This document shows positions 2,532-34,508 of a stretch of 34,635 bases of DNA, piece after piece; position 1 is the first letter of the stretch; each line of letters begins with the position of its first letter. Source of the stretch: a virus (taxonomy: Duplodnaviria; Caudoviricetes). The notes below the pieces were generated by a model. That model was not told where the DNA came from. It worked only from the letters and a program-made list of their open reading frames with translations, and did not search any database. Made by a program: the position numbers and the translations under genes. Location of the stretch: the IMG/VR virus record IMGVR_UViG_3300006065_000009, positions 1 through 34,635 of that record; one strand, written 5' to 3'.

Positions 2532-4589
2532 ATGGAGAAAGTAAATACCCCAACTATCTGTGTTAACATGATAGTTAAGAATGAACAAGCCATGCTTGCT
2601 CGTTGTCTGGACTCGGTTAAGGGTGCAGATTTCATAGTAATATCCGATACAGGTTCCCAAGATAGCACGGTAGAGATAGCAAAACGCTATACTAAACACG
2701 TCTATACCGAGTATAAATGGGAGGACTCCTTTGCTAAGGCACGTAATTTTGCCCTGTCGAAGGTGCCCAAAGAGGCCGACTGGGTATTACAGATTGATGC
2801 AGATGAAGTACTTAACGAAGGAATAGAAGCCCTTAGAGGGCTTCTGAAGGGCGTTGGGAAAGAGTATTCAATGGTTAGGATTAAGTTAATTGACGAAAAG
2901 AGTGGTAGTAGTCATATGTTTCAGAGGGTGTTTAGAAACGACCCTGCAATATCATGGCATGGTGTTGCACACAACTACTTAGTAGACACCAAAAAGAGAA
3001 AGCAGTACGACGCAACCGAGTTGATTTCTATTAACTATGGTTATTCCCCTGCCCACAAGCTAGACCCAGACAGAACATTTAGAATACTCAGTAAGGCTAT
3101 AAAGGATAATCCTCAGTTGATAAGAGAAAGGTATTATTTAGCTAGAGAGTACTTTTATAGAAATAGATGGGAGGAAACTATTAAAGAACTAGACGAATAT
3201 ATTAAGGGAAGTAGTTTTGTATCGGAAAGAAACGGCGCCTGGTTAATGAGGGCAAAGTGCCTTTCTAAGATGGGCAAGTTCCCTGAGGCGTGTGACAGTG
3301 CTTGGCAGGCGATTAAGTACAATGCTAATTTTAAAGAGGCCTTGGAGTTTATAGCTAGCCACATAGACCCAGTTAACAAGGAGAGGTGGGCTAGTTTTGC
3401 ACAGTTAGCAGACAACAGGGGGGTGTTGTTTGTCAGGGAAAACAATAAAACCCGGGATTATTTTGTAGGTGGAGATAATTCATTTCAGCCAACACTCAAT
3501 GTAAAAGACGGACTACCCATGGACCTTAATAAGGACGGGTTGTTTTACATAGAGAATTTGCTACAGAGGAAAGACAATATAGATGTTTTAGAGTGGGGTA
3601 TAGGGTTTAGTACAAAGCACTTTACACAACTACTAGACAGGGCAGGGGTGGGATTTACTTGGACTGGAATAGAACACAACGAGGCCTGGTATAAAAAGGT
3701 TAAAGATTGGGGGTTAAAAAATACTAAGTTAATACTGGCTGATAAAGAGAGTAGAGAGTACTTAGAACCAGCCGGAAAGTATGACATTATTTATGTAGAC
3801 GGGAGAAACAGGGCTATCTGCTTGCAGAACGCCAAGTCTATGCTAAAAGAGGGTGGTGTGGTACTTTTGCACGACGCACAGAGAGAAAGGTATAGGGCTG
3901 GCATGGCGGGATATTTTGGTAGGTATATTGGAAGTGAGTACCCACTTTTGTGGCAGGGAACATTGGAGCCAATAGAGAGTATTCCACAGGTTATACACCA
4001 GGTGTGGATAGGCCCTGAACCAGCTCCAACCAACTGGATAAACACTTGGAAAGAAAAGAACCCTAGCTTTGAACATAGGTTGTGGACAGAAAAGGAGATA
4101 GACAAATTAAAACTAGATAACAGGGAGCTTTATGAGAAGTACTACAGCATGGGAGAGTTTGCGTCTTGTAGCGATATTGTAAGAGCCCAGATATTAAGGG
4201 ACTTTGGAGGTATTTATATAGACGCAGACATGGAGTGTATTACCACTATAGAGAATACCCCTTTCATGGTATGGGATTTTGTCACAATTTTTGCAGTGGA
4301 CTTAGATACTCGCTTGAACAGTATTCCCCTAGGGGCCGTAAAAGGACACCCAATACTTAAAAAATGTGTAGGGGAGCAGGGAAAAATAGAAGAGCTAGAA
4401 CCAGGCTACGAGAAGGTAGGCCCAGGTTTATTAACAAAACTAGTTAAAGACAATGACAACATTTTACCTGCTTATAGTTTTGCCCCGGTGTTTCATACGG
4501 GGTATAAAAACAAACCTACAGGGCTCTGTTATGCAAGACATTCGTGGTATTCTACTCCTCGCCCGAAGAAAAAACTAAGAAGCAGTTGA
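2532..4589 (+). CDS. Multidomain protein: GT2 glycosyltransferase + TPR + SAM methyltransferase + GT32-like (DXD) glycosyltransferase
   Basis: N-terminal ICVNMIVKNE...DTGSQD...IDADE (GT2); YYLAREY/TPR helices; VLEWGIG...YDIIYVDG...GGVVLLHD (class I MTase); IPQVIHQVWIG...SDIVR...GGIYIDAD (OCH1/GT32-like). Confidence 0.85.
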   Translation: MEKVNTPTICVNMIVKNEQAMLARCLDSVKGADFIVISDTGSQDSTVEIAKRYTKHVYTEYKWEDSFAKARNFALSKVPKEADWVLQIDADEVLNEGIEALRGLLKGVGKEYSMVRIKLIDEKSGSSHMFQRVFRNDPAISWHGVAHNYLVDTKKRKQYDATELISINYGYSPAHKLDPDRTFRILSKAIKDNPQLIRERYYLAREYFYRNRWEETIKELDEYIKGSSFVSERNGAWLMRAKCLSKMGKFPEACDSAWQAIKYNANFKEALEFIASHIDPVNKERWASFAQLADNRGVLFVRENNKTRDYFVGGDNSFQPTLNVKDGLPMDLNKDGLFYIENLLQRKDNIDVLEWGIGFSTKHFTQLLDRAGVGFTWTGIEHNEAWYKKVKDWGLKNTKLILADKESREYLEPAGKYDIIYVDGRNRAICLQNAKSMLKEGGVVLLHDAQRERYRAGMAGYFGRYIGSEYPLLWQGTLEPIESIPQVIHQVWIGPEPAPTNWINTWKEKNPSFEHRLWTEKEIDKLKLDNRELYEKYYSMGEFASCSDIVRAQILRDFGGIYIDADMECITTIENTPFMVWDFVTIFAVDLDTRLNSIPLGAVKGHPILKKCVGEQGKIEELEPGYEKVGPGLLTKLVKDNDNILPAYSFAPVFHTGYKNKPTGLCYARHSWYSTPRPKKKLRSS

Positions 4590-5589: not shown

Positions 5590-6558
5590 ATGTTGAGTAC
5601 TGGGTGGAGAAATCCCTCGATGGTAAACAATGTAGACTCTGTAGGAAGCTCCTGTTGGAATGATATTAATAATGTTAAGGTAGCTAATTCAAATGGTGCC
5701 ATGGTGCTAACAGGGGTTAACACTGCATGGAGTAATATTTTTACAATGACGGTAAACGCAACGGCCGTTAACATAACTAACTGGATAGGTTCTTCTATAA
5801 ACACAAGTCCAGTCATGCCAAGTACAATAGGAGGTCGACCAGTAAGAACAGCCTTAAACACTACTTTTGGTACTAAGACGGCACTAACTGGTGCGTATAT
5901 AGGAAATGCGAAACTAACTAGTAATACCGTTGCGACGAATGGATTCCGAGCTTCGACCAATCTTTTGAAAGTAGATAAAATTCCACTTAGATTTGACGGC
6001 GGTGCAACTACTACCGTGAGGAACACTTTTAATGGTTGTTCAAATTTGGTTAATGCCCCCGTCATACCAGAGGGGGTTACTGATATGGTTAATACTTTTT
6101 CTAGTTGTACAAACCTAGTAAATGCCCCCGTCATACCAAATAGTGTTACTAATATGGCTTTTACTTTTTCTGATTGTACAAGACTAGTAAATGCTCCTGT
6201 CATACCAAACAGTGTTACTAATATGGTTTTTACTTTTTTTGGTTGTACAAACCTAGTAGATGCTCCTGTCATATCAAATAGTGTTACTAATATGTCTAAT
6301 ACTTTTTCTAGTTGTACAAACCTAGTTAATGCCCCCGTCATACCAGAGGGGGTTACTGATATGACTAGTACTTTTAGGAGTTGTACAAACCTTACAGGGA
6401 ATATTACTATCCTTAGTCCTGAAGTAGGGGCCCTGCAAAACACTTTTAATAATACTACCGCAGCTAAGACGGTTCGTGTTCCTGCGGGAAGTAATACTTA
6501 CACCAGGGCAGTTGCAAACTGGGATGGTAAAAATGGTGTTACAGTAGTAGGTATATAA
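5590..6558 (+). CDS. BspA-type leucine-rich repeat (LRR_5-like) protein with a chimeric N-terminus
   Basis: Five 23-aa repeats TFxxCTNLVNAPVIPxxVTxM; ITNWIG...VMPSTIGGRPV cap typical of BspA-like proteins. Confidence 0.8.
   Translation: MLSTGWRNPSMVNNVDSVGSSCWNDINNVKVANSNGAMVLTGVNTAWSNIFTMTVNATAVNITNWIGSSINTSPVMPSTIGGRPVRTALNTTFGTKTALTGAYIGNAKLTSNTVATNGFRASTNLLKVDKIPLRFDGGATTTVRNTFNGCSNLVNAPVIPEGVTDMVNTFSSCTNLVNAPVIPNSVTNMAFTFSDCTRLVNAPVIPNSVTNMVFTFFGCTNLVDAPVISNSVTNMSNTFSSCTNLVNAPVIPEGVTDMTSTFRSCTNLTGNITILSPEVGALQNTFNNTTAAKTVRVPAGSNTYTRAVANWDGKNGVTVVGI
6025..6393 (+). repeat. 69-bp coding tandem repeat (about 5.3 copies)
   Basis: AATGC(C/T)CC(C/T)GTCATA-type units at 6052, 6121, 6190, 6259, 6328; 6051-6087 is identical to 6327-6363. 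Confidence 0.9.
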
Positions 6559-6577
6559 ATTGTTTAATATCAACAAA

Positions 6578-7573
6578 ATGGGCAAAGAAATAGACATAAT
6601 AATACCAGCATACAAGGCCCAGAAAACGATACTAAGGACGCTAGCTTCCATAGCGACTCAAACAATATTAGAGTCTATTAGTGTAACGATAGTAAATGAC
6701 GCTGACGGAGAGGGTTATTCAAGGTTTGTTAAGCAGTTTAAAGATGTAATGGATATAAAAGAGATTACCCTAGAAACAAACGGAGGTCCTGGGGTGGCAA
6801 GACAAGCGGGTATAGATGCAACAAGGGCTCCCTACTTTACTTGTATAGACGCAGACGATACTTTTGCAAACCCTTTTGCACTAGAAATTCTACTTGCTAA
6901 TATGAAGGCAGAACCGGGATATCATACGGTAATAGGAGCTTTTGCAGAGCAACAACCAGGATTACAGTTTCTAGTTCATCAGGAGGATATGGTTTGGATG
7001 TTTGGGAAGCTGTACACAAGGGCGTTTATAGATAGGTACAATATAAGGTTTAACGACACACGGGCTAACGAGGACAATGGGTTTAATACGATAGTAAGGT
7101 TAGTGTCTTCAGAGACAGAGAAGGTTAAGTTTATACAGGATATTGTTTATTACTGGCACTATAAAGAGGATTCTATTACTAGGATAAACAATGCACAGTA
7201 TTCTTACGACCAGAGTTTTGTTGGATATACAGAGAATATGATATATGCAATTAAAAAGGCCAAAGAGGTTAAACCATTTAATAGCTATATAGACATGTGG
7301 GCTGTGCAAGTCATGGCACAGTTATATATTTATTACTATCAAACAGTTAAAAGAGACAAGCGATTTGTTAAACAGAATTACAATTCTTGTGTAAAGTATT
7401 ACAGGGAGATTTTTTATCATTATGATAGTACAATGAAAAAAGAGGACTTTGAGGCTATCTTTGGGGAGACACTGTCAGGACAGGCCCCTAACATGAAAGA
7501 CGTAGTACCAGACAAGTCCATATATGAATTTATTAAAACTTTAAAAGAGGATTCTAAGAAATGGGCGCAGTAA
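6578..7573 (+). CDS. Family 2 glycosyltransferase
   Basis: IDIIIPAYKA...IVNDAD...NGGPGVARQAG...CIDADD...ANED; ATG at 6578. Confidence 0.9.
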   Translation: MGKEIDIIIPAYKAQKTILRTLASIATQTILESISVTIVNDADGEGYSRFVKQFKDVMDIKEITLETNGGPGVARQAGIDATRAPYFTCIDADDTFANPFALEILLANMKAEPGYHTVIGAFAEQQPGLQFLVHQEDMVWMFGKLYTRAFIDRYNIRFNDTRANEDNGFNTIVRLVSSETEKVKFIQDIVYYWHYKEDSITRINNAQYSYDQSFVGYTENMIYAIKKAKEVKPFNSYIDMWAVQVMAQLYIYYYQTVKRDKRFVKQNYNSCVKYYREIFYHYDSTMKKEDFEAIFGETLSGQAPNMKDVVPDKSIYEFIKTLKEDSKKWAQ

Positions 7574-23551: not shown

Positions 23552-23987
23552 TGTATTTATTAATAATTCTTGATATGCCTGTCTGACCCATGCCGTACAT
23601 TTTAGCCAATTCTTTTTGAGTCTTACCCTTCTTGTAAAGGGCTACTATAATCTTGTCTCGGTATTCTTTTGCTTTAAGAGAGTTATCATACGGAGTACCA
23701 CGGGTTAAAAACCTTACTACATCTTGGTTTATTTTTAGTTCCTTAGATATTTCTTTACTGGAGAAACCATTCTCATACATTTCTAGTATTTTTGAAAGGT
23801 GCTGTTTGTGTCTTTGTAGAGTAGCTTCTTTTCTTTTCTGCCTCATTTTAAGAGACACTTCTCTCCAGTTTGGCATGGTACGCAACCTAAGGTATACAGC
23901 TTCTCCCGTTACATTGTTTTCTTTTCCTATGTCTTTCACACTTTTACCCTCTAGGTACTCTTTAATAAACCTTTCTGTAGCCTCCAT
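23478..23987 (-). CDS. Multi-HTH DNA-binding protein
   Basis: Three HTH-like repeats (GKSVKDIGKE, GFSSKEISKEL, GKTQKELAKMYGMGQTGISRII). Confidence 0.75.
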   Translation of the reverse strand: MEATERFIKEYLEGKSVKDIGKENNVTGEAVYLRLRTMPNWREVSLKMRQKRKEATLQRHKQHLSKILEMYENGFSSKEISKELKINQDVVRFLTRGTPYDNSLKAKEYRDKIIVALYKKGKTQKELAKMYGMGQTGISRIINKYNANIQGRLRPGRKSSRKNNSSPKV

Positions 23988-23992
23988 TATTC

Positions 23993-24154
23993 TTATTCTT
24001 TTAATAGTTTAGATACTTTAGGTAACATTTTAGTAATCTTCTTCATCACCTCTTTTCTTGTAAAATTAGTATTCAGGTAGTAACTCTCTCCGAGGTTCTC
24101 AAGGGTATACCTGTCTTCCCCTATCCTATTTATAATCAAAATTATCTTCTTCAT
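23993..24154 (-). CDS. Small hypothetical protein (53 aa)
   Basis: MKKIILIINRIGEDRY...KVSKLLKE; fills the gap. Confidence 0.55.
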   Translation of the reverse strand: MKKIILIINRIGEDRYTLENLGESYYLNTNFTRKEVMKKITKMLPKVSKLLKE

Positions 24155-24156
24155 AT

Positions 24157-24963
24157 TTACTTTCCTTTCTCTTTAAGGTTAGATAACTTTTCTATTACAT
24201 CATTTAATGCCATTCCCCTTACGAACCATATATATTCATCTGCTGTCTTGCAGTCATAAATAGTTTTTATGTGTTTATATTTAAGTATATCGCCCTTGTA
24301 CTTCATATCTTTAACTTCATTTAATATCTCTTCTGTCCTCTCGGATAGTAGTTGCTTTAATTCCTCTTTAACAATGGCATCTCCATTACCTGCTGAATAA
24401 TAATTAAAAAGGAACTCTCTCAAATCCTTTAATCTTTCCAATACTTTATCACTATCATCATTACTCCCCATCCCATATTTTTCATAATCCCATATAACAT
24501 CATCTAGCCACCTATGAGTTTTATTTGATAGAAGTGCATCATTTAGAGTTGCATATTTTAACACCTCTCTCCACTCCCCTTGCTTCTCTGGTTCAAGAGT
24601 CATATCTCTTACACCCCTAACACCACACCTTGTACAACGATTATTCAAATCAAAGTCGTGTTCACACTTCTCTGGTTGCTTCCCTGGTTTACTTCCCTTT
24701 TGCCAACTGCAATCCTCTGATTGTTCGTGAACTACCTGTTCGTCTGTCTTCTCTGGTTGCTTCTGGGATTGGTCCGAATGGAATAACAATGAATACTCAA
24801 TGTAGGTAATGTTTCTCTTTGGGTCTGTATCATATCCGTGAATTATTACATCTCCTCCGTGTGTGAGTAAATCTTTCTCAATTTCTCGTACCACCTCGTC
24901 CCAACTCGTTGCACAAAAGTTGTCGTGGTCCATTTCAAACACTAACTTTTCTATCTTCTTCAT
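24157..24963 (-). CDS. Mosaic hypothetical protein A (anchor-segmented; small CxH...CxxC module)
   Basis: Shares six short anchors with 26897..27535. Confidence 0.7.
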   Translation of the reverse strand: MKKIEKLVFEMDHDNFCATSWDEVVREIEKDLLTHGGDVIIHGYDTDPKRNITYIEYSLLFHSDQSQKQPEKTDEQVVHEQSEDCSWQKGSKPGKQPEKCEHDFDLNNRCTRCGVRGVRDMTLEPEKQGEWREVLKYATLNDALLSNKTHRWLDDVIWDYEKYGMGSNDDSDKVLERLKDLREFLFNYYSAGNGDAIVKEELKQLLSERTEEILNEVKDMKYKGDILKYKHIKTIYDCKTADEYIWFVRGMALNDVIEKLSNLKEKGK

Positions 24964-24989
24964 GATTGTTTAAACTTAATATTAGTTTG

Positions 24990-25131
24990 TAGTGGGTAAG
25001 GTTGTCATCCTTTCCCCACAGGTTCTAAATTACGCCTAAGGAGTTTCAAGGCTTGCTGTATATTTATCACTCTTGCGAGTCACCCATCAGCAGACTGTTA
25101 CCTGGACAATACTGTCCTACCCCTTACACAC
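24990..25131 (-). ncRNA. Candidate structured RNA (~140 nt)
   Basis: Minus strand: GTGTGTAAGG/CCTTACCCAC outer stem; GGACA-gtat-TGTCC; CAGGT/ACCTG; TGCTG/CAGCA; ACTC-GCAA-GAGT; GCCT/AGGC. Confidence 0.5.
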
Positions 25132-25141
25132 GGGTAAAACA

Positions 25142-25624
25142 CTATTTCCTGTCTATATTTGAACGAACAAAACTGTCCATTTCACTTTTAATCTTGCTCT
25201 GGCTAAACGATATGAGCCTTGCACAGTCGTCATACAAACTCTTTAACCACCTCGCTTGGTGACTGGCTTTCAATTCCTTAGCCTTAATCTCGTCACAACT
25301 GGCTTCGGCCTGTGCCTTTGCCATACCGTCAGTAATCTTAAACTCGTTTTTCTTTAATCTTAAATACTCGTCTCTGACTGCCGACTTATACTCTTCTCCA
25401 AGTACCTCTGCTTTAATATGTGCATAGTCTTTTAAGTCGCTTAGATTGTCCATTATCTTGGTGAGTGTGAAGATGTAATCTACTAAGGCGTCCATTTTCC
25501 ACTCGTTGATTGGAGTGTCTTCAATCTTCTTTTTTATGAGGAAGATTTTAGAAATAACTTCCGTACTCTCGGTTTCCATTTGTTTCTCTTCTATCTCACG
25601 CATTACCTGCTCACTGTCTATCAT
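25142..25624 (-). CDS. Helical protein, possibly UvsY-like recombination mediator
   Basis: Coiled coil with KITDGMAKAQAE; adjacent to HNH and RusA. Confidence 0.4.
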   Translation of the reverse strand: MIDSEQVMREIEEKQMETESTEVISKIFLIKKKIEDTPINEWKMDALVDYIFTLTKIMDNLSDLKDYAHIKAEVLGEEYKSAVRDEYLRLKKNEFKITDGMAKAQAEASCDEIKAKELKASHQARWLKSLYDDCARLISFSQSKIKSEMDSFVRSNIDRK

Positions 25625-25836
25625 TTATTTTTCTTAATTATTTTATATTCCCTTAAATAAAGTCCTAACTCTCTAGCTTCTTTGATATGGGTGTGCACCC
25701 AGTTGTGACACTCTCTACATAAATACACTACGTCTACTCCCCCCTTACTCTTGGTCACTATATGGTGCCTGTCTAAGTGTACATACTCCTCGCTCTTACC
25801 ACACCTTTCGCACCTTTTTTCGTCTAAAAACCCCAT
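25621..25836 (-). CDS. HNH endonuclease
   Basis: CERCG...LDRHHIV.KSKGG...LCRECHNWVH. Confidence 0.85.
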   Translation of the reverse strand: MGFLDEKRCERCGKSEEYVHLDRHHIVTKSKGGVDVVYLCRECHNWVHTHIKEARELGLYLREYKIIKKNK

Positions 25837-26225
25837 TAACCTACTGTGTAAAAACTTATTTCTAAATATTCTTTTTCACTCTCGCACTTGTACCAACTAC
25901 CACCTATTATTCTACTGTCGTCTATTTTCTCGCCCTTATCGTCTACTACCTTGTTGTGTAGTACTGTGTCTATTGCGTATTTAATCATGTTATGTGCGTC
26001 TCTTTTGCGCACTGACCTGTTCTTAAAATGTAGTGGGTAGTGAAAGATTATTTCTACCTCGTACCACTTACTATACTTAATAACCTTTTCTTTAACTGTT
26101 AAAAGAACAAACCCTTCCCACTCTTTATACTCCTCGGTCTTATAGCCACCCCTTTTAGACATTCTTACTGCCTTGTTCTCTGACACTGGTAGTAAGTCTA
26201 TTTTAAACGTTATTGTGTCCTTCAC
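25836..26225 (-). CDS. rusA: RusA-like Holliday junction resolvase
   Basis: PVSEN...Y..W...RDAHNMIK..ID...IDDSRI. Confidence 0.8.
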   Translation of the reverse strand: MKDTITFKIDLLPVSENKAVRMSKRGGYKTEEYKEWEGFVLLTVKEKVIKYSKWYEVEIIFHYPLHFKNRSVRKRDAHNMIKYAIDTVLHNKVVDDKGEKIDDSRIIGGSWYKCESEKEYLEISFYTVG

Positions 26226-26454
26226 TTCCTTCTTGTGCTAAAAACCATTTTATTTCTTTGTTCATATCTCTAAGTATCTTTATTAGTTTTGGCCTGTGCC
26301 TTGGTGGTAGTGGGCTGTGACCATTCTCCCATATGCTAATGACTGGTGCAGACACCCCGAGTACCCTTGCAAATTGTTTTTGACCCATTCCGCAGAGTCC
26401 CCTCGCTACCCTTAGTAGTACCCTGTCGCTGTATAAGTTTGGTTCTATTTTCAT
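26203..26454 (-). CDS. XRE-family HTH regulator
   Basis: LRVAR...MGQKQFARVLGVS...ISIWENG..P. Confidence 0.85.
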   Translation of the reverse strand: MKIEPNLYSDRVLLRVARGLCGMGQKQFARVLGVSAPVISIWENGHSPLPPRHRPKLIKILRDMNKEIKWFLAQEGSEGHNNV

Positions 26455-26466
26455 TTATATATTATA

Positions 26467-26625
26467 CTATTTTAATTTAATTAAACTCTCATAGGCAGTT
26501 TTTCCACACCTCTTACACTTCAAAGGTTGCATTGGTATTCCCATACTCATTGTATTAAATGGTTCTCCCTCCCCAACAAACCTATGTCCAAACACCTTAC
26601 AAATAAGCCTTTTTACTTTATCCAC
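26467..26625 (-). CDS. Small Zn-binding prophage protein (DUF1660-like, 52 aa)
   Basis: GTG start; RLICKVFGHRF...CKRCGK. Confidence 0.6.
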   Translation of the reverse strand: MDKVKRLICKVFGHRFVGEGEPFNTMSMGIPMQPLKCKRCGKTAYESLIKLK

Positions 26626-26897
26626 TATTCTTCCTCCTTTAATAAATTAAGAAACTCCTTTGTAAGCTTGGAAATATCCTCTAATATATAAACCGCCACA
26701 GCCAAATTGTACTTAGCCCGCTCGTGTCTGTCAGCCAAACTCTCGTACAGGGCTTTGTAGTCTCCATTAAAGTCGCCTGGCATACCCTCCCTACCTATTG
26801 CGCTAGGACACCTTACCCCCTCTTCTTCAGTGTAGTATCTACCACATTTCTCCCAGACCACACTTAAAAACTCCTTTATATCCTTATTCCTTTCCAC
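26625..26897 (-). CDS. Hypothetical protein
   Basis: TAGTG-coupled ORF. Confidence 0.6.
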   Translation of the reverse strand: MERNKDIKEFLSVVWEKCGRYYTEEEGVRCPSAIGREGMPGDFNGDYKALYESLADRHERAKYNLAVAVYILEDISKLTKEFLNLLKEEE

Positions 26898-27535
26898 TAT
26901 TTTTGCTTTGACGGTTTAGATAACTCTTCTTCTATATCTTTAATCACCTCTCGAAGTATCGCAAGACAGTGAGAACCATAAGAGTGCTTATCGTTATCCC
27001 TCTTCTTTATTGATTTCTGTATCTCACTAAAAACCTTCTCTGTCCTCTCGGATAGTAGTTGAGATATGAGGTTAGTTACCCTTTTTCTTGTAATATCTTC
27101 AAACTCCCCCCTGTCAATCAACTCCCTATCTCGTCTGCTTCTTTCTTCATTGGCCATTGTTATCTCTCTTACTAACCATTCTACCTCTCTCCACCCCTCT
27201 TGCTTCTCTGGTTTAAACATCTTTTCTACTTCCTCTCTCGTTTTCCACTCTACTTTGTAGTCAGTTCTTCCTGTAAAATCAGGTACTAATGGGTCTACTA
27301 TAACTTTTTCTGGTTCTGTGTTTATATATTCCCTCTCTGGTTGCTTCTCTGATTTACTTCCTGATAATTCTCCTAAAACTCTTACCCTCTTCTCATATTC
27401 TATCCCCTCTGGTTGCTTCTGGGATTGGTTTAATTGGTCTATTATCTCGTTGATTTTTATAGTAATATCAATAATAACTGCCGATACACTTTCACCAACA
27501 ATTTGGTCGCTTTTTAACTTCTCTATCTTCTTCAT
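26897..27535 (-). CDS. Mosaic hypothetical protein B (anchor-segmented)
   Basis: Shares six short anchors with 24157..24963. Confidence 0.7.
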   Translation of the reverse strand: MKKIEKLKSDQIVGESVSAVIIDITIKINEIIDQLNQSQKQPEGIEYEKRVRVLGELSGSKSEKQPEREYINTEPEKVIVDPLVPDFTGRTDYKVEWKTREEVEKMFKPEKQEGWREVEWLVREITMANEERSRRDRELIDRGEFEDITRKRVTNLISQLLSERTEKVFSEIQKSIKKRDNDKHSYGSHCLAILREVIKDIEEELSKPSKQK

Positions 27536-27539
27536 AACT

Positions 27540-27917
27540 TTATTTAGTTAATTTAATTAAATCAGAAAACACTTGTTCTTGTATCTCTGTCATAGCATAA
27601 GTAAAAGCTTCCTCACTATTCCTATCTAAACTAATTCCTGCGTTTCCTAGTGCACGGAATACAAAGTGTAGTAGTTCGTGTGTGATTACCAATATGTCTT
27701 GCAAGTCCCAACTGAACTTGGGTAAATAAATCATATCGGGCATTTCTCCAACACTCTCATAATAACCACCCTGTCCGTCGAAACTCTCATAGGTTATATG
27801 GTACTTCTCTTTGGTATACCCCACAAAATCTTCCCCGTTTCCGATAAATACAGTCAGGTTCGTGTTATAAATTGGCAATTGGTATGTCTTGATATAATTC
27901 TTCTCCTTCTCACCCAT
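27540..27917 (-). CDS. Putative Zn metallopeptidase-like protein
   Basis: ITHELLH (HExxH)...SEEAFTY. Confidence 0.65.
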   Translation of the reverse strand: MGEKEKNYIKTYQLPIYNTNLTVFIGNGEDFVGYTKEKYHITYESFDGQGGYYESVGEMPDMIYLPKFSWDLQDILVITHELLHFVFRALGNAGISLDRNSEEAFTYAMTEIQEQVFSDLIKLTK

Positions 27918-28158
27918 TGTTTTTACTTTGTTTAATGTTAGATAATTCTTGTATTTTCTTTAACTTATCTTTCAGCATCTCATTTTCATCTTCCATTTTC
28001 TTAATCTCTCTCATATACAACCTGTAGAACTCTGTTGCTGGTGTCATCAAAACGGTACTCTTACCTGTCTTATAATTGTCTTCCCAAGCAAGATACATAG
28101 AAAATCTCTCATCTATCTCGTGTAATCTTTTAATAAACTTCTCTCTCTTCTCTTCCAT
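27910..28158 (-). CDS. Hypothetical protein
   Basis: 82-aa ORF in operon. Confidence 0.6.
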   Translation of the reverse strand: MEEKREKFIKRLHEIDERFSMYLAWEDNYKTGKSTVLMTPATEFYRLYMREIKKMEDENEMLKDKLKKIQELSNIKQSKNNG

Positions 28159-28199
28159 TCTCTGTAATGATTAAATTAAACTAACCCTTAATAATTTAA

Positions 28200-28445
28200 C
28201 TAATACCCCCTCTGGTCCCGTTGGGCATAGTATTCTGCTTCGTCTTGTGCTTGTTGTTGTTCTTCATATTCTCCTTTCGCCTGTTCTTCTATTTGTGCTT
28301 CTATTTCATGTGCAAGCTTTTCCTGTTCCCCCTCTATAGAATATCTATCTTCTAAAACCACTTGTAACTCACTAATCAGCCTCTCTATGTCGTCCGTTTT
28401 CCACTCTGCGATTATATTATATTCATCATTTACTATCTTCTTCAT
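28200..28445 (-). CDS. Hypothetical acidic protein
   Basis: 81-aa ORF; starts with the shared ATGAAGAAGATAG. Confidence 0.6.
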   Translation of the reverse strand: MKKIVNDEYNIIAEWKTDDIERLISELQVVLEDRYSIEGEQEKLAHEIEAQIEEQAKGEYEEQQQAQDEAEYYAQRDQRGY

Positions 28446-28485
28446 TGGTTATTCCTTTACTTTTAATTTAGATAACTTACCATTC

Positions 28486-28734
28486 TCAAAGTTTACCAGT
28501 TATCTCAAGGGTTTTCTTTACCCTCTCATATAAATCTATGTGCTTAGAGGGGTGTATCTCTTCCCAACAATCATCACAAACTGCCGGAGTGTCATCACTT
28601 GGCTCTAAACCCCAGAGTTTCTTGCATTCTTCTTTTGCACCACTACTATCCCATTCTTCATCCAATCCATACCATTTTTTGCATTTATCACATTGCCATT
28701 CCTTTTTACCGTTTTCATTAGTTCTTCTGTTCAT
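28486..28734 (-). CDS. Zn-finger hypothetical protein
   Basis: CDKC...CDDC. Confidence 0.65.
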   Translation of the reverse strand: MNRRTNENGKKEWQCDKCKKWYGLDEEWDSSGAKEECKKLWGLEPSDDTPAVCDDCWEEIHPSKHIDLYERVKKTLEITGKL

Positions 28735-28807
28735 CTTCTCTTCTGATTAAATTAAATTAAACTACTTAGCTCTTTAACTATGTCCTCAATCATCTTGTTG
28801 TGCCTAT

Positions 28808-29020
28808 CTATTGTAATTTTCTTAAAGTATCCATCATAATCTTAAATGCTACTTCATAGTTGTTGTTCTTAACGGTATTGTATATTGGATAATAAATCGG
28901 ATAGTATCTATCCCAAGTCCAGTAATTGTAGGGAAAATAGCAATTTTGTGTTGTTGCCAAAATAGTATCTACTACAGAAAATCCCCCTGCTGTACTGTGA
29001 ACATATAAACCTGTTTCCAT
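28808..29020 (-). CDS. Hypothetical Tyr/Pro-rich protein
   Basis: 70-aa ORF with AT-rich leader. Confidence 0.5.
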   Translation of the reverse strand: METGLYVHSTAGGFSVVDTILATTQNCYFPYNYWTWDRYYPIYYPIYNTVKNNNYEVAFKIMMDTLRKLQ

Positions 29021-29054
29021 CTATATAAAAACTAAACTTAAATTAAACTACTTC

Positions 29055-29186
29055 TTAATAACTCAAAATACCTACCGTTAGCCCGCACCTATAACAAGGA
29101 GTTCGGCGGTCTAATGTAATTGTCTGAAAAACAATAGTACGCCAGTTTTAATCACTCACTAACGGTAAGTATTCTCAATTATCAAA
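29055..29186 (-). ncRNA. Stalk-closed RNA unit 4 of the array
   Basis: ATAATTGAGAATACTTACCGTTAGT pairs with GCTAACGGTAGGTATTTTGAGTTAT (25 positions, 4 G-U, 1 mismatch); preceded by TAGCTCTTTGA. Confidence 0.6.
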
Positions 29187-29190
29187 GAGC

Positions 29191-29342
29191 TAATAACCTG
29201 TATGAGATACTCTGGGTAGGGTTTCTACAACTTTTAGGTATGAGACGCAGTCTCGTTGTTACCATTGAAAGTCCTATACAGATACGCTGTAGCTACTAAG
29301 ATGCAATCTATTCGCCACCAAAGTACCTCATACAAACTATTA
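29191..29342 (-). ncRNA. Stalk-closed RNA unit 3 of the array (loosely tRNA-like interior)
   Basis: TAATAGTTTGTATGAGGTACTTTGG pairs with CCAGAGTATCTCATACAGGTTATTA (25 bp, every non-Watson-Crick pair is G-U); preceded by TAGCACTTTAA. Confidence 0.6.
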
Positions 29343-29356
29343 AAGTGCTAACCATA

Positions 29357-29430
29357 CTGGGCAGTGTAGCTCGCAACACTATTCTGCCCCCGAAGTGACT
29401 TTCGCAGTAACTACCACTAGAACTGCCCAG
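29357..29430 (-). ncRNA. Structured RNA unit 2 of the array
   Basis: CTGGGCAGT/ACTGCCCAG 9-bp closing stem with internal hairpins. Confidence 0.45.
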
Positions 29431-29437
29431 AGCCAGT

Positions 29438-29567
29438 GGAGTGTGTGTCTGCTCATACGTGCGACTTCCCTTTGTATGGTAGGGTTATTCACCCCTACGA
29501 GTAGGTCCGGCGCCTTGTGAGCGTCCAACCCACCGCAGGGAGGAACTACCCCCTGTTGGATTACTCC
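29438..29567 (-). ncRNA. Structured RNA unit 1 of the array
   Basis: After TAGCTCTTTAAAATT: GGAGT/ACTCC closing stem; TCCAAC/GTTGGA; CAGGG/CCCTG; GCTCA/TGAGC; GTAGGG/CCCTAC. Confidence 0.5.
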
Positions 29568-29580
29568 GAATTTTAAAGAG

Positions 29581-29697
29581 CTACTCTCTAATCTTTCTAA
29601 ATAATTTCTTGACTATCCAGACCAAGAAAAGTACCGGAACCGCAAGTATTAAAATTCCTAATATTATTCCAAAAATTGAACCTACTAATTCTGCCAT
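29581..29697 (-). CDS. Small membrane protein (38 aa)
   Basis: MAELVGSIFGIILGILILAVPVLFLVWIVKKLFRKIRE. Confidence 0.55.
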   Translation of the reverse strand: MAELVGSIFGIILGILILAVPVLFLVWIVKKLFRKIRE

Positions 29698-29714
29698 TGT
29701 AAGTATAAATAAAA

Positions 29715-30128
29715 TTAACTTCTTTTAACCAAACTGTTAAGAGCACTTAAGAGTGTTTCCTTTTGAGCCCTGTCCATATCTGCCGAGTTTAAAAACACTT
29801 CAGAAAGTAAAGAGTAGGCTACTGAGTAATCCAAAACGGCTTCCTTGTTAATACTTCCATTGTCAGACATACCCTGTGGAGCTTCTTTCTCAAGTAGTTT
29901 GTACCCACGAAGTGTTAATGTAGTAGCCTTGTAGTTTGCCCCGTCCTTCATTTTATTTAAAAGTCCATGCTTAACTGCTCTGTCTACCCTACTGTAAACG
30001 GTTGGTGCAGGCATATCCTCCAATAAGTCTATTAAATCTACTATCTTAGCAGGTTTCTTCTCCCGAGCGGTGATGGTGTCTACTGCTACTAAAACGTCCA
30101 TCATTTTTGCTTTTTCTTCTTTTCTCAT
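29715..30128 (-). CDS. Winged-helix DNA-binding protein
   Basis: Probable start 30128; PAKIVDL...PAPTVYSRVDRAVKHGLL...LTLRG. Confidence 0.65.
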   Translation of the reverse strand: MRKEEKAKMMDVLVAVDTITAREKKPAKIVDLIDLLEDMPAPTVYSRVDRAVKHGLLNKMKDGANYKATTLTLRGYKLLEKEAPQGMSDNGSINKEAVLDYSVAYSLLSEVFLNSADMDRAQKETLLSALNSLVKRS

Positions 30129-30314: not shown

Positions 30315-30512
30315 TTAAACCAAACCTAGTATTATTACTAGGATTAGCTGACAAAGAAATATCCAAAACCCTACCTGGAGTGCTACCTTTAAGGTATACA
30401 GCTCCATACTCTCTTTAGCACCTTTCTTATTTCCCATTTGACTGAAGATATAAACCGCTTCTTCAGAATATTTTAATTTGCGGATTTGATTGCTTATACT
30501 TTTCATCCTCAA
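30315..30512 (-). CDS. Small protein with C-terminal TM helix
   Basis: 65-aa ORF. Confidence 0.5.
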   Translation of the reverse strand: MRMKSISNQIRKLKYSEEAVYIFSQMGNKKGAKESMELYTLKVALQVGFWIFLCQLILVIILGLV

Positions 30513-31110
30513 TTGTTTTTAAAATTAAATTCTGGTTATCTCTAACCCACTCAATCATCTCATTATCAAAAACGACCTCCTCTAGTTCCCATGAACCGTC
30601 ATTTTTGAACACTATCACACATAAATCCTGCTTCCAGTCCATGGCGTAAGCATACATACTTAACTGCCACCTTACCTTCTTAATCTTACTACTGTCTTTT
30701 TTGTACTCCTTTCCGTTCCACGCCCCGTATGTCTTCCAATCTACTAGGGCTATTTTAGAAGTACCCTTTTTGCGAACAACCCCGTCATACCTACCTGCAT
30801 AGTTCAGCTCCTCGCACACTACCTCTTGCTCAGTACTCACCAACTCCCACTCTTTCAGAAAGCCATCAACTGCCGAGTATAACCTGCTCTCTAGCATGTC
30901 AACCTGAGGGGCTGTGAGACTCTCTAAGGCATTCATTTTGTCGCTTATGTATTCTGACACCTTATCTCCTAATACAGAGCTAGTCGCAGAGATTAAATTA
31001 CTATCTAACCCCTTGCTATCACACCATTTTGTAAAAGAACTACTATTAAATGGCTTCCTCAAGTCTATTATAGAGGTCACCGACAGATACTTACCCTCGT
31101 ATATCCTCAT
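30463..31110 (-). CDS. PD-(D/E)XK exonuclease
   Basis: YLSVTSII...EQEV...YAGRYD...LVDWKT...QLSMYAYA. Confidence 0.85.
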   Translation of the reverse strand: MRIYEGKYLSVTSIIDLRKPFNSSSFTKWCDSKGLDSNLISATSSVLGDKVSEYISDKMNALESLTAPQVDMLESRLYSAVDGFLKEWELVSTEQEVVCEELNYAGRYDGVVRKKGTSKIALVDWKTYGAWNGKEYKKDSSKIKKVRWQLSMYAYAMDWKQDLCVIVFKNDGSWELEEVVFDNEMIEWVRDNQNLILKTIEDEKYKQSNPQIKIF

Positions 31111-31112
31111 AC

Positions 31113-31556
31113 CTAAAAAGGTAAATCGTCTATATCTTCTTCTAGCATCTCTTTACTCATATCTAAAGCCCCTTGCACTTCTTCGCCCTGTCCTTTAACC
31201 CCAAACACCTTGTCTTCTAATTTCTTAACCCTTTCTTCTAATTCCTTTAAGTCTAACTCCAGTGCCTTTTTACCTGTTGCTGGTGGTTGGTAGTTAAAGT
31301 AAGTCTTACCATTAAACTCGCTTGTTGATACTGTTCCTGTTAAAGGTGTTCCTACTCCCCAATTACCAGAAACGTCAAAGTAGTCAAAGTAGGTCATCTT
31401 ACCCTTAAACTCTGGGTGGTCTACTTCTCTAGGGTCTATGTATAAATCCACCTTGGTGAAAGCGTCTCCCTTTGCAGACCTATATAGCTTCCCGTTCTGG
31501 TCTTCCTTGTTTCTAAATATCTTGTCTATAATGCAGTTTTCTATGGAATATTCCAT
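31113..31556 (-). CDS. Putative single-stranded DNA-binding protein
   Basis: OB-fold-sized beta region and acidic tail EEDIDDLPF; next to the exonuclease. Confidence 0.6.
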   Translation of the reverse strand: MEYSIENCIIDKIFRNKEDQNGKLYRSAKGDAFTKVDLYIDPREVDHPEFKGKMTYFDYFDVSGNWGVGTPLTGTVSTSEFNGKTYFNYQPPATGKKALELDLKELEERVKKLEDKVFGVKGQGEEVQGALDMSKEMLEEDIDDLPF

Positions 31557-32104: not shown

Positions 32105-32335
32105 TTAACCCATATCATCTGCACAAACTTCGCAGATATACCCAGTTCCATAACTAACCGACCTCATACTGTCCTTTGGTAATAATTCGCCACACCTAAT
32201 ACACTCTCCCATATCCTCCTCTATAACTGGTTCAAACTGGTCAATATCAATCTCTGTATTCTCCTCATCATCTTCCCATACTCCATTGCCGTTTCTCACT
32301 CCGTTCTCATCAAACCCTTCGGGTATGTTATTCAT
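32105..32335 (-). CDS. Acidic Zn-finger protein
   Basis: CIRC...CEVC. Confidence 0.6.
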   Translation of the reverse strand: MNNIPEGFDENGVRNGNGVWEDDEENTEIDIDQFEPVIEEDMGECIRCGELLPKDSMRSVSYGTGYICEVCADDMG

Positions 32336-32480
32336 GTAAATAAATATAATAATTTAGATTACCCTTAATCACTAAGCAAGGACTGTAAGTAGTGGTACAG
32401 GTCGGCTTCCTGTCTAACCTTGTACCTCGGCTGTTTTCCTTTCTAAACTAACCACTACATACTTGACATCTTTCTGTTTT

Positions 32481-32509
32481 ATGCTAACACTATACAGCCC
32501 AGTTGTCAA
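32481..32509 (-). promoter_or_regulatory. Sigma70-type promoter
   Basis: TTGACA-17 nt-TAGCAT on the minus strand. Confidence 0.55.
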
Positions 32510-32520
32510 TGCCTTATAGT

Positions 32521-32910
32521 TTAGATAACTATAAGGCTATACCCTATTTCTTCAAGCTCTTTCTTAAGGTCTTTGTACTGCTCTGGGGTTGCCTTTTTGC
32601 ACTTTAGCAAGCTCTTGTCGGCGTCCCCATGCTGTCCCACATGCTGATAGGACATAATGTAGCCATTGATTCCCTTTTCTTCTGGGAATAGTGCTACTAC
32701 TTCATCTTTGAAGATTACAAACTTTACTTTTGTTCCCCTCTCTACTTCCTCTATGTCCTTTCCTACTACAAAGTAAACCTCGTCTGCTTGGTTTGTACAC
32801 TCCCCACGCTCTAATGCCTCTTGTACTAATTGCTTTGCTTGGTCTTCATCTGTAGCTTCTACTTCTACGTAGAAAGGTGTAGTATCTACTGAAACGCTAT
32901 ATGTTTTCAT
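32521..32910 (-). CDS. Early protein with DpnD/PcfM-like N-terminus
   Basis: MKTYSVSV...VEVEATDEDQAKQLV; C-terminal VVALFP...IMSYQHVGQH. Confidence 0.6.
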   Translation of the reverse strand: MKTYSVSVDTTPFYVEVEATDEDQAKQLVQEALERGECTNQADEVYFVVGKDIEEVERGTKVKFVIFKDEVVALFPEEKGINGYIMSYQHVGQHGDADKSLLKCKKATPEQYKDLKKELEEIGYSLIVI

Positions 32911-32940
32911 ATAAATAAAATATAATAATTTAGATAATTA

Positions 32941-32969
32941 ACTATAGCATTTTCCCTTCTAGTTGTCAA
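32941..32969 (-). promoter_or_regulatory. Strong sigma70-type promoter
   Basis: TTGACA-17 nt-TATAGT with TGn extension. Confidence 0.75.
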
Positions 32970-33044
32970 GTGGTGTTCTCTTTGTTCTCTTCTAGCTCTT
33001 GTATGGGTGTTCTCTTCTTGCTCTTTAAACTGTTAGACATATCA

Positions 33045-33072
33045 AAACAAAAGGCGGTATGTTACAACCGCC
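33045..33072 (-). terminator. Intrinsic terminator
   Basis: GGCGGT-tgtaacat-ACCGCC followed by TTTTGTTTT on the minus strand. Confidence 0.7.
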
Positions 33073-33082
33073 CTATGTTTTT

Positions 33083-33265
33083 TTAATTTTCCTCTTTCAT
33101 TATTCCGTCTATACTTAATATCTCGCCTATTTCCTCGTTTTTAAACTCTTGCTCTACCTCTCTGTATTCTCCGTTCTCATACTTTTGCTCTGCCTCCTCT
33201 TTACTCTCTGCTTCTACTTCATATTCTGTGAAGCAATCAGTCTTTGTGTAGATACGGTATATCAT
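33083..33265 (-). CDS. DpnD/PcfM-like small protein
   Basis: EYEVEAESKEEAEQKYENGEY. Confidence 0.65.
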   Translation of the reverse strand: MIYRIYTKTDCFTEYEVEAESKEEAEQKYENGEYREVEQEFKNEEIGEILSIDGIMKEEN

Positions 33266-33283
33266 AACATTTAATATAATAAT

Positions 33284-33475
33284 TTAGATGTCTAACTCTT
33301 CTATTCTCTCTTTTAGCTCTTCAAGGGCGTGTACAACCTTCAGTATGTCGTAATAATCGATGTCCTTGAGGTCTGTGTCATCAATATCCCTTAACTTGTC
33401 TCTTAAGATTTTTATGTTGTTTTCATCGGCTTGAAGTAAATCTTTTAGATACTGATTGTATCTGAATGCCTTCAT
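33284..33475 (-). CDS. Hypothetical protein
   Basis: 63-aa ORF flanked by the leader motif. Confidence 0.6.
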   Translation of the reverse strand: MKAFRYNQYLKDLLQADENNIKILRDKLRDIDDTDLKDIDYYDILKVVHALEELKERIEELDI

Positions 33476-33492
33476 AGATATAAAATAATAAT

Positions 33493-33660
33493 TTAGATGA
33501 TATATAACTCTACTATTTCGAGGGCATACCCATTCTGCTTATATACAATGTCTTTTATTTTGTATTCCGCTTCTTGGATGTCGTTAGCCTCGAGCCTTAG
33601 TACTTGACTCTCTCCCTTACCATCGGAGAGCCTATACTTAAAATGAGCATAAAATCTCAT
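33493..33660 (-). CDS. Small hypothetical protein (55 aa)
   Basis: MRFYAHFKYRLSDG...LEANDIQEAE; flanked by the leader motif. Confidence 0.6.
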   Translation of the reverse strand: MRFYAHFKYRLSDGKGESQVLRLEANDIQEAEYKIKDIVYKQNGYALEIVELYII

Positions 33661-33714
33661 AACTTTAAATATTAATAATTTAGATATGTAATATATAAAA
33701 CTTAATATACTACT

Positions 33715-33738
33715 AAAAGGGCGTATCCCTACGCCCTC
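33715..33738 (-). terminator. Intrinsic terminator
   Basis: GGGCGTA-ggga-TACGCCC followed by TTTT on the minus strand. Confidence 0.7.
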
Positions 33739-33750
33739 TCTAGTATGATA

Positions 33751-34146
33751 TTAAATAACCCTGTAATCACTTGCTAGGCTATTCCACGAGCTAGTAAACG
33801 ACTTACCAACCCTTACAGGTTTGGCTATTTCCTTCTTTGTTAGTACTGTATTGTAGAACGTGTAGAGCAAATCAAAACCCATATCCATGCCACAACCACC
33901 GACCTTTACAGGCTCAGGGCTAATTTTGTTGTTGTATATACAGTTTAGTATTCTATTGTGTGAAAGTTTAAACCCGAAACGTCTTGTCATACCCGACTTG
34001 CTAACTTTTAGACTACAATAAACCTCTCTCCTTTTCATATCTCTCAATAGTTCCTTGATATCTTCTGTAAAGTTTTCGAAACTGTAAAATGTCTTATCAC
34101 CTTTTAGCCCTTCATATATTTTCGCTAATTCTTTCTTGTTCTTCAT
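33751..34146 (-). CDS. Conserved phage early hypothetical protein
   Basis: Probable start 34146; VSKSGMTR...VGGCGMDMGF motif. Confidence 0.65.
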   Translation of the reverse strand: MKNKKELAKIYEGLKGDKTFYSFENFTEDIKELLRDMKRREVYCSLKVSKSGMTRRFGFKLSHNRILNCIYNNKISPEPVKVGGCGMDMGFDLLYTFYNTVLTKKEIAKPVRVGKSFTSSWNSLASDYRVI

Positions 34147-34157
34147 AATATTTAATA

Positions 34158-34310
34158 TTAATAATTTAAAATAAACGCCAATATTAAACCCGCTAAAAAT
34201 AACAGAACGCACAACCCTAGTACTTGAAGCAATAGGGCGAACGCAAACGCCCAGAAGGATGTGTCGCTATCCTTTTGTATATCTCTCCACGACTTACTAA
34301 TACTTGCCAT
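34158..34310 (-). CDS. Small membrane protein (50 aa)
   Basis: MASISKSW...FAFALLLQVLGLCVLLFLAGLILAFIL. Confidence 0.5.
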   Translation of the reverse strand: MASISKSWRDIQKDSDTSFWAFAFALLLQVLGLCVLLFLAGLILAFILNY

Positions 34311-34314
34311 TTTA

Positions 34315-34458
34315 TTATCTTAAAATTTTATATCCGTTATCTACCAACAACATCATCAATTCTATAGAGTTCATAGAGCCAAGCCCCTTTATTGTGGCCT
34401 TTTCTCCGTCCTCTCTTACCCTAATGACGTGTTTACCTTTCACGTATATTGTAAACAT
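34315..34458 (-). CDS. Small hypothetical protein (47 aa)
   Basis: MFTIYVKGKHVIRV...; has the leader motif and an upstream promoter. Confidence 0.55.
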   Translation of the reverse strand: MFTIYVKGKHVIRVREDGEKATIKGLGSMNSIELMMLLVDNGYKILR

Positions 34459-34508
34459 AAAAATATATATAATAATTTAGATGAGATTGGTATTTCTACC
34501 TTATGACA

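Follow-up and report, generated by a model that had tools for sequence, protein, structure and literature searches.

Can phage proteins be diversified by exchanging pieces smaller than a gene, at short stretches of DNA that the genes have in common? Two genes in a 34,635-nucleotide (nt) stretch of DNA raise this question. The stretch, here called the window, covers positions 1 to 34,635 of a linear virus record that is 75% complete, and gene A (24963 to 24157, minus strand, 268 amino acids, aa) and gene B (27535 to 26897, minus strand, 212 aa) are the two genes in it that match the profile of their family. A preliminary description had proposed that both are built on the same short DNA words, which we call anchors, and that the anchors are in-frame crossover points at which phage recombination swaps mini-modules. 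Our results support this proposal: blocks of similarity end at anchors and stay in frame. We consider it likely that the two genes belong to a large phage family in which anchors of 20 to 30 nt, conserved at silent sites, separate recombined segments, with crossover at the anchors, a helical scaffold, and binding to the host. The comparisons below directly support the anchors, the reassortment, the block ends at anchors, the keeping of frame, and purifying selection on the segments.

Anchors shared by two genes and a family

Do the two genes really carry a common set of anchors? Six were common to both, as had been described, in the same order and all in one frame, and their sizes were 20/21, 23/23, 26/28, 29/31, 23/23, and 10 nt. 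We labeled them S (start), Q (present twice), P, L, and E (end); gene B also has N. The segments between them, here called fillers, are unrelated, as had also been described, with no shared block between anchors. The second Q anchor was present as reported, whereas its reported length of 13 nt was not upheld, 14 nt being exact within a match of 26/28. It is a repeat of the first Q, and Q and P have a core of 11 to 15 nt in common. Five anchor types are thus found in both genes, with N in gene B and absent from gene A. The two genes shared 36 12-mers; 300 codon shuffles gave 0.28 on average and never more than 7. Their longest common block measured 31 to 45 nt, and exact anchor matches did not exceed 23 nt. 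The end-anchor match (24188-24179 versus 26925-26916, 10 nt) is weak taken alone (E about 5 to 6); it recurs at the neighboring gene ends 27945-27931 and 28478-28468. Anchor E contains a run rich in purines and frequently extends over the start codon of the following gene.

24157..24963, minus: gene A, family member, in the order S-filler-Q-filler-Q-filler-P-filler-L-filler-E
26897..27535, minus: gene B, family member, in the order S-filler-N-Q-filler-Q-filler-P-filler-L-filler-E
24943..24963, minus: start anchor S of gene A, 20/21 nt versus gene B
27515..27535, minus: start anchor S of gene B, 20/21 nt versus gene A
27434..27457, minus: anchor N, in gene B and most relatives, not in gene A; end of the first amphipathic helix; the least DNA-conserved anchor
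24751..24773, minus: first Q anchor of gene A, 23/23 versus gene B
27407..27429, minus: first Q anchor of gene B, 23/23 versus gene A
24669..24696, minus: second Q anchor of gene A, 26/28 versus gene B
27334..27361, minus: second Q anchor of gene B, 26/28 versus gene A
24563..24593, minus: P anchor of gene A, 29/31 versus gene B
27183..27213, minus: P anchor of gene B, 29/31 versus gene A
24332..24354, minus: L anchor of gene A, 23/23 versus gene B
27039..27067, minus: L anchor of gene B, with 27061-27039 identical (23/23) to gene A
24141..24188, minus: end anchor E of gene A, crossing the stop codon into the start of the next gene; 45/46 nt identical to a gene boundary in another phage, G004
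26916..26925, minus: end anchor E of gene B, 10-nt core

The anchors are not confined to the window. A 20-nt piece of L had exact copies in four further virus records, always within a gene that combines these anchors with different segments. Pattern scans returned 14 plus 122 metagenome loci, with most of the 122 and part of the 14 being chance matches. Filtering left 34 distinct open reading frames (ORFs); one (L038) was dropped as unrelated, which gave 33 family ORFs, and the profile was built from 32 members. Searches with this profile detected 241 proteins at E ≤ 0.01 and 276 representatives of 50% identity clusters at E ≤ 0.001. The best 120 of the 241 and the best 150 of the 276 were considered, and 214 distinct sequences were analyzed (P numbers below). 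Many members come from single contigs of 1 to 3 kb in short-read metagenome assemblies, and most clusters at 90% identity hold one member. Virus records carry 1 to 5 copies or fragments of family genes, and family segments are also present in shorter neighboring genes. In one locus (L049:3591-3920), a family gene has a stop codon within its L anchor and is otherwise 99% identical to L098:673-1158.

Searches of the databases returned no described family. Genes A and B matched no Pfam or PHROG family; the 32 members gave scattered single-member matches only in Pfam, as did 104 members in PADLOC and PHROGs, with no common PHROG family. No homologue of solved structure was found (best E of 0.013), and one member used as query had no match among 50,697 GenBank phages. 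One anchor pattern had 8 matches in species-representative genomes, and none of these 8 loci gave a family gene; the family profile had no match in the 3 of these genomes that were searched with it. A full-text literature search, which covered the main text of papers and only part of the subscription literature, returned no description of the family. Only two members carry an organism name, both "Candidatus Dojkabacteria" and both on one 3.6-kb contig of a binned genome, which is a weak hint of the host.

Reassortment of the segments between anchors

If anchors are crossover points, are the segments between them inherited together or reassorted? Of the 214 proteins, 125 could be split into four slots, and 10 with repeated L anchors were left out, leaving 115 for tabulation. 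Each slot held 55 to 68 segment families, with a median segment length of 25 to 35 residues, and 112 of the 115 proteins had a distinct combination of segments. The middle slot was empty in 10/115 and held two to four pieces in 21/115, and six family pairs were found in different slots. Proteins sharing one slot also shared the next in 10 to 28% of pairs, compared to a background of 2 to 4%, so that linkage between slots is weak but present. The claim that segments reassort was thus strongly borne out, whereas the idea that they do so freely was not.

The identity of neighboring segments was bimodal. In 591 comparisons, the neighbor of a segment with ≥90% identity was itself ≥80% identical in 173, 50 to 80% in 2, 35 to 50% in 20, and <35% in 396. 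Sets of four proteins with all four combinations of two alleles were found at all three inner anchors: across Q (P0010, P0024, P0035, and P0058), across P (P0020, P0011, P0017, and P0030), and across L (P0030, P0098, P0002, and P0022). Linked, gradual divergence over the full length, which had been named as the result that would speak against swapping, was not seen. The fillers of genes A and B themselves recur in other company. The family of gene A's first segment and that of gene B's long middle segment are combined in P0092, and in P0003 a middle segment of gene A precedes a segment of gene B.

24772..24942, minus: gene A filler, aa 8-64; relative in P0092, where the gene B aa 68-107 family comes next
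24682..24747, minus: gene A filler, aa 73-94; relative in P0003, where the gene B aa 45-63 family comes next
24592..24666, minus: gene A filler, aa 100-124, cysteine bearing; 93% identical over 91 nt to a gene with other neighbors in G001; also in P0048, P0106, and P0157
24370..24564, minus: gene A filler, aa 134-198; P0097 has a close relative, beside other neighbors
24196..24333, minus: gene A filler, aa 211-256; nothing related in the other 213 proteins
27458..27514, minus: gene B filler, aa 8-26; no relative found
27347..27403, minus: gene B filler, aa 45-63; relatives in P0003, P0005, P0006, P0008, P0009, and P0104
27215..27334, minus: gene B filler, aa 68-107; relatives in P0002, P0025, P0045, and P0092
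27068..27196, minus: gene B filler, aa 114-156; no relative found
26900..27040, minus: gene B filler, aa 166-212; a single marginal match

One potential explanation is that these are ordinary old paralogues whose loops diverged past recognition while their protein motifs were conserved. Consistent with this, the anchors coincide with predicted helices and hydrophobic periodicity. Old paralogy would leave unexplained why near-identical segments adjoin unrelated ones and intermediate identities are all but missing, as well as the four-combination sets and the identity of anchors at silent sites (see below) compared to saturation in core genes, and we hold it to be very improbable.

Could the combinations instead be chimeras made by the assembly of short reads at short repeats? 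All sequences come from short-read metagenome assemblies, many of them from single contigs of 1 to 3 kb. However, exact anchor matches between genes A and B of at most 23 nt speak against such mis-joining. In addition, positions 23900-27800 were present as a single contig in 3/4 public runs of one hot-spring sample, each separately assembled, so the layout is not specific to a single assembly. The window may itself derive from these runs. (No RNA data set was listed among those holding the window stretch.) Reassortment also held for the 28 proteins seen on at least two contigs, with neighbors <35% identical in 43/49 comparisons. The junctions were always in frame, and homologous fillers were diverged at silent sites across contexts, which mis-joining cannot produce. 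Assembly chimeras are therefore largely refuted, and it would surprise us greatly if they accounted for the combinations.

Breakpoints, silent sites, and a proposed route of exchange

Where do blocks of similarity end? For near-identical protein blocks, 430 of 792 distinct ends fell in anchor words (19% expected), and 197/792 lay more than 5 residues from anchors. At the DNA level, 36/49 inner block ends were within 12 nt of an anchor (32% expected), all 33 blocks tested for frame were in frame, and one block of 128 nt, running from the first position of P to the last of L, was 100% identical. All 58 DNA matches to Q, P, and L lay in frames that were open for 80 codons or to the end of the contig.

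The preliminary description had further argued from synonymous-site identity that the anchors are conserved as DNA. To quantify this, we compared codons at identical residues in 29 genes with available DNA, using gene B as the reference. At Q, which was never used as a search pattern, the codon was the same as in gene B in 134/145 cases (0.45 expected), and its serine codon was TCC in 20/20 despite a usage of 7%. The corresponding values were 94/111 at S, 63/95 at N, and, for genes that had been detected by their L anchor, 44/45 at P. Comparison of five core genes with those of G003, the nearest phage, gave the same codon at a frequency of 0.37 to 0.55 (0.39 to 0.42 expected). Anchor conservation thus exceeds both codon usage and core genes, and conservation at the amino acid level only, which would have spoken against the proposal, was not seen. 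The fillers diverge more at silent sites than the adjoining anchors: in 26 pairs of homologous fillers with ≥55% amino acid identity, pS was 0.48, pN 0.11, and dN/dS 0.15. By these sequence comparisons, the segments are old and under purifying selection as protein.

Silent-site conservation might have another cause. The anchors may be kept for some other DNA or RNA reason, such as ribosome binding, translational coupling inherited from fused short genes, or protein-binding sites, with recombination as a by-product; the proteins need not then be selected for diversity. The purine-rich run of the end anchor and its overlap with the next start codon at many loci favor this explanation. Moreover, short stand-alone genes start at P (P0147, P0154, and P0196), other family proteins stop before P, and some long proteins (P0019, P0051, P0052, and P0063; scored at a loose L threshold) repeat the P-L unit, so that inner anchors may be old gene boundaries. 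On the other side, it leaves unexplained the invariance of rare serine codons in Q and L inside long open frames. RNA structure was ruled out as the cause at N, Q, P, and L, where mean folding energy equaled that of recoded controls (24 to 28 genes each). The purifying selection on segments and the helix register kept beside anchors also argue against it. We judge this explanation improbable as a whole, although it is compatible with crossover at anchors as an account of their origin.

Are the anchors shared between phages that otherwise have little in common? Of the window's other 48 genes, 0 are present in G002, 2 in G004, 3 in G006, 4 in G001, 7 in G005, and 21 in G003, and among five records searched the window capsid was found only in G003. 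By comparison, short DNA matches to the window fell almost entirely within 23.9 to 30.5 kb (15/15 for G002, 11/11 for G004, 8/9 for G006, 25/26 for G001, and 19/23 for G005), at anchors, gene boundaries, and one non-coding element. The boundary matches are as follows.

23984..24020, minus: gene-boundary anchor common to G001, G002, G005, and G006
26618..26650, minus: gene-boundary anchor common to G005; gene end with a ribosome-binding-like purine run
27914..27940, minus: gene-boundary anchor, 26 to 27 of 27 nt in G001, G002, and G005
28144..28203, minus: intergenic and start anchor common to G002, G004, and G005
28433..28477, minus: gene-boundary anchor, 43/44 nt with the boundary of two family genes in G002 and 18 nt with G006
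28730..28756, minus: intergenic and start anchor common to G002 and G005
29029..29071, minus: intergenic anchor at the cluster head, common to G001 and G005

The same kind of anchor at gene boundaries across 24 to 29 kb implies a single pool in which genes would travel both entire and in part.

The non-coding element (window 29195-29340, minus strand) consists of two invariant 18-nt arms that form a stem of ~18 bp and a variable interior of 90 to 150 nt. It heads the cluster in 4 phages (other copies at L160:1422-1575, L166:17785-17972, and L171:2415-2545), and the window copy has a z score of -3.2. In three relatives the interior ends in a motif like a tRNA T arm, and the copy in G005 lies directly after a tRNA gene; in the window there was no ARAGORN or Rfam match. 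Because the stem pairs barely vary, there was no covariation support. The element is possibly a tRNA-derived RNA, itself made of constant arms and a swapped interior. Directly downstream is a second long inverted repeat (29055-29185; 27-nt arms, 81%), and positions 29020-29715 form 700 nt without an ORF of 50 aa. In G005, a tRNA gene and a 393-aa protein (L166:16345-17600) lie within the anchor-bounded cluster between two boundary anchors common to the window. This protein resembles an RtcB RNA ligase.

Is a dedicated enzyme involved? An unidentified site-specific or guided recombinase could recognize the anchors and move integron- or shufflon-like cassettes at the sub-gene scale. Such an enzyme might account for the fact that rare codons in Q and L hardly vary among phages whose capsids differ, for block ends in or at anchors, and for the invariant long-stem element at the cluster head in 4 phages. 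However, the domains PF00589 (tyrosine recombinase), PF00239 (serine recombinase), and PF00078 (reverse transcriptase) had no match in 5 phage genomes, two of them complete, in line with the earlier view that neither a diversity-generating retroelement (DGR) nor an invertase is needed. None of the window's other 48 genes is common to all carriers. The anchors are several unrelated words in direct orientation, with no palindrome and with folding not beyond recoded controls, and many different gene-boundary words act alike. An enzyme supplied by the host would be compatible with these results. We regard a dedicated recombinase as unlikely, slightly more so than conservation of the anchors for another DNA or RNA reason.

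General recombination is the alternative to such an enzyme. Genes A and B are encoded opposite to the capsid and structural genes, amid RusA, HNH, regulator, and nuclease genes. Exonuclease, SSB-like (single-stranded DNA-binding protein), and RusA genes had been called nearby; RusA and a PD-(D/E)XK nuclease were confirmed, whereas the SSB-like call was not. The SSB candidate (31113-31556) reached an E of 0.014 to an SSB PHROG in 2/18 homologues and had no solved-structure match beyond coiled coil.

25836..26225, minus: RusA-family Holliday junction resolvase between genes A and B, PF05866 over cut-off
30463..31110, minus: PD-(D/E)XK exonuclease, PF12705 over cut-off

Erf was found in G006 and Sak/Rad52 in G005; RecT was found in 0/5 genomes. 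One study (PMC8136500) describes such phage recombinases as tolerant of divergence and as overrepresented in phages that have undergone recent transfers.

These data suggest the following route. Short-homology recombination would likely take place at anchors, both between co-infecting phages and between paralogues. Swapping would be carried out by general phage recombination rather than by a site-specific enzyme, with an exonuclease and a single-strand annealing protein followed by RusA-type resolution. The shared core of Q and P means that out-of-register crossovers would add, delete, or move middle segments. Anchors would stay uniform since every exchange copies them, and a drifted anchor would leave the shared pool. 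No A/B hybrid or deletion-circle joint was found in 4 contig sets, which is not evidence either way, as contigs drop rare variants. One contig of run X4 shows a loose end at 24952, and its 20 letters are identical to 27932-27951. Microhomology of 9 of 11 nt exists between the two sites, and joining them would preserve the frame. This end may reflect a rare rearrangement, a related phage, or an artifact.

A predicted helical scaffold among known mosaic systems

What would such proteins do? The anchors are charged and predicted to be helical, and hydrophobic positions at helical spacing occur around N, downstream of P, on both sides of L, and at E, as well as within variable segments. The structure models of gene B (pLDDT 69, pTM 0.47) and P0050 (pLDDT 74, pTM 0.44) have helices at anchors, with a middle segment of low confidence in P0050. 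The gene B model gave generic three-helix-bundle matches from N to L, and the P0050 model a generic four-helix unit from P to E. Further searches identified no family: the best E was 0.71 with Foldseek versus viral models, the best ESM Atlas feature scores were 0.75 and 0.80, and VIA-align found only generic helical bundles (best Z of 8.6, rmsd 4.5, 119 aligned, and 9.2, rmsd 2.5, 89 aligned). At least two cysteines were present in 35/131 middle segments, compared to 5 to 10 of 112 to 114 in other slots, which suggests from sequence that the cysteine-bearing middle segments are small metal-binding knuckles.

As our best guess for function, we tentatively entertain a helical scaffold that displays variable segments to host targets, while regarding it as somewhat short of an even chance. 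The N, P, L, and E anchors are predicted to encode amphipathic scaffold helices, such that any in-frame swap would still fold, with new segments of 20 to 60 residues. The products would be non-structural proteins that bind variable host targets in take-over or counter-defense, which is the weakest step.

Several observations weigh against crossover at anchors within a host-binding scaffold. The 197 protein block ends, together with 13/49 DNA block ends, that lie off anchors imply that other breakpoints or plain decay occur too. Linkage between neighboring slots persists at the frequencies given above. Pair counts are not independent, and many sequences may stem from few related populations; single-linkage clustering also merged at least two filler families. 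The choice of filler pairs at ≥55% amino acid identity lowers dN, and genes with an L anchor were mostly found by the L DNA pattern itself. Both structure models have low pTM and disagree on which helices pack. No Erf, Sak, or RecT was detected in the window record, in G001, or in the complete G003, in searches that did not cover Sak4, UvsX, and gp2.5. Finally, no exchange has been caught in the act.

How does the family compare with known systems? The accessible text of PMC3157838 describes gp38 adhesins of T-even phages as having glycine-rich motifs between hypervariable segments, with chimeras arising from exchanges within or near conserved motifs and each tested deletion being non-viable. 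Like gp38, as described there, the family alternates short conserved structural-core motifs with interchangeable variable segments, here on the basis of comparative data. By that description, gp38 is a single-copy receptor-binding protein of the virion with four segments of fixed order and number; in contrast, family genes lie on the non-structural strand in 1 to 5 copies per genome with a predicted helical scaffold, their segments can be absent, doubled, or change slot, and the pool extends over phages whose capsids differ. Neither sequence nor fold similarity to gp38 was found, nor homology to its glycine-rich motifs, and genes A and B, opposite the structural strand, do not have a gp38-type tail-fiber location. 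Among the structural genes themselves, the window encodes a BspA-type leucine-rich repeat protein (5590-6558, PF13306) with five to six 69-nt repeat units and two glycosyltransferases (2532-4589 and 6560-7573), the first a fusion of GT2, TPR-like, methyltransferase, and DXD glycosyltransferase domains.

For the domain movement (DoMo) of target recognition domains in restriction-modification specificity genes, PMC3467074 gives repeats of 19 to 49 bp in Type I and 8 to 117 bp in Type III systems. It describes how a domain moves from one site to another within a gene, or from locus to locus, with no recombinase dedicated to the task, and it cites 15-bp "recer" repeats and staphylococcal tandem paralogues. 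The family resembles this in its in-frame replacement at short flanking homologies, including the cross-slot moves of six family pairs. By contrast, the genes of that account are cellular and functionally characterized and have one or two recognition domains of large size, whereas the family consists of phage genes with at least 4 small slots of 55 to 68 segment families each, and no methyltransferase or restriction-modification family was found for members in Pfam or PADLOC.

PeSL cassettes of T4-type phages are described in the accessible part of PMC2839356 as intergenic promoter-terminator elements that move whole genes. In that account, short conserved words amid small non-essential genes serve as exchange points and can loop out circles, which recalls the boundary anchors of 24 to 29 kb; unlike PeSLs, our main anchors are coding and move gene parts. 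Promoter-like sigma-70 matches numbered 29 versus 35 expected, with the caveat that the sigma-70 consensus may not be the host's, and terminator-like matches 9 versus 5.8. Elsewhere in the window (32324-34482), an AT-rich word of ~18 nt is repeated ahead of several small early genes and is a candidate promoter or PeSL-like repeat. The lambdoid Ea22 proteins, in the accessible text of PMC10834534, are small early proteins with a helical core, mosaic variable parts, and proposed contacts to host proteins, in which one shared N-terminal half is combined with alternative C-terminal domains. They are similarly mosaic around a helical core with unrelated variable parts, but that text describes neither DNA anchors nor multi-slot reassortment. 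No Ead/Ea22 or DUF551 match was found in Pfam for the 32 members at E ≤ 0.05 or for genes A and B.

For within-gene exchange, the accessible part of 10.1101/2020.10.05.325894 holds nothing.

Targeted diversification of protein parts is also known from DGRs, shufflons, and integrons. The family differs from these in replacing segments, rather than using adenine mutagenesis, inversion, or cassette capture. We found no DGR template/variable repeat of ~100 to 150 nt with adenine differences, the segments between anchors being unrelated. There are no inverted sites as in shufflons, since the anchors are direct repeats, and neither PF00589 nor PF00239 was found in 5 genomes. As for integrons, there is no integrase and no folding signal at the anchors, which lie within genes. 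The family works like gp38 and DoMo and is a member of neither. It is distinct in its at least four slots with dozens of alleles, its variable number of segments, its cross-slot moves, its several copies per genome, and its one pool across different capsids.

A bolder reading, which we advance as speculation and think rather doubtful, is that of a community-wide combinatorial protein library: phages with unrelated capsids would keep, by selection for evolvability, common crossover words in a helical display scaffold, with no dedicated enzyme. If this were true, dozens of independently selected mini-modules per slot would yield millions of possible host-binding or counter-defense proteins. The system would be a recombination-based counterpart of DGRs, probably in phages of candidate phyla radiation (CPR) bacteria, and possibly a general, unrecognized way in which small phage genes arise. 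Likewise, if the scaffold reading is true, the segments would be a natural library of candidate host-binding or counter-defense peptides, and the anchors a marker of gene flow among phages that otherwise share almost nothing.

Small non-structural phage genes are mostly orphans, and this family shows one origin for them: in-frame reassortment of pieces of 20 to 60 residues at DNA words. Such reassortment means that whole-protein clustering splits one system into hundreds of singletons. The family also touches an old question, whether the boundaries of phage mosaics come from pre-existing linkers or from illegitimate joins filtered by selection. With anchors uniform at silent sites and flanked by half-saturated segments, the linker question becomes testable at the codon level.

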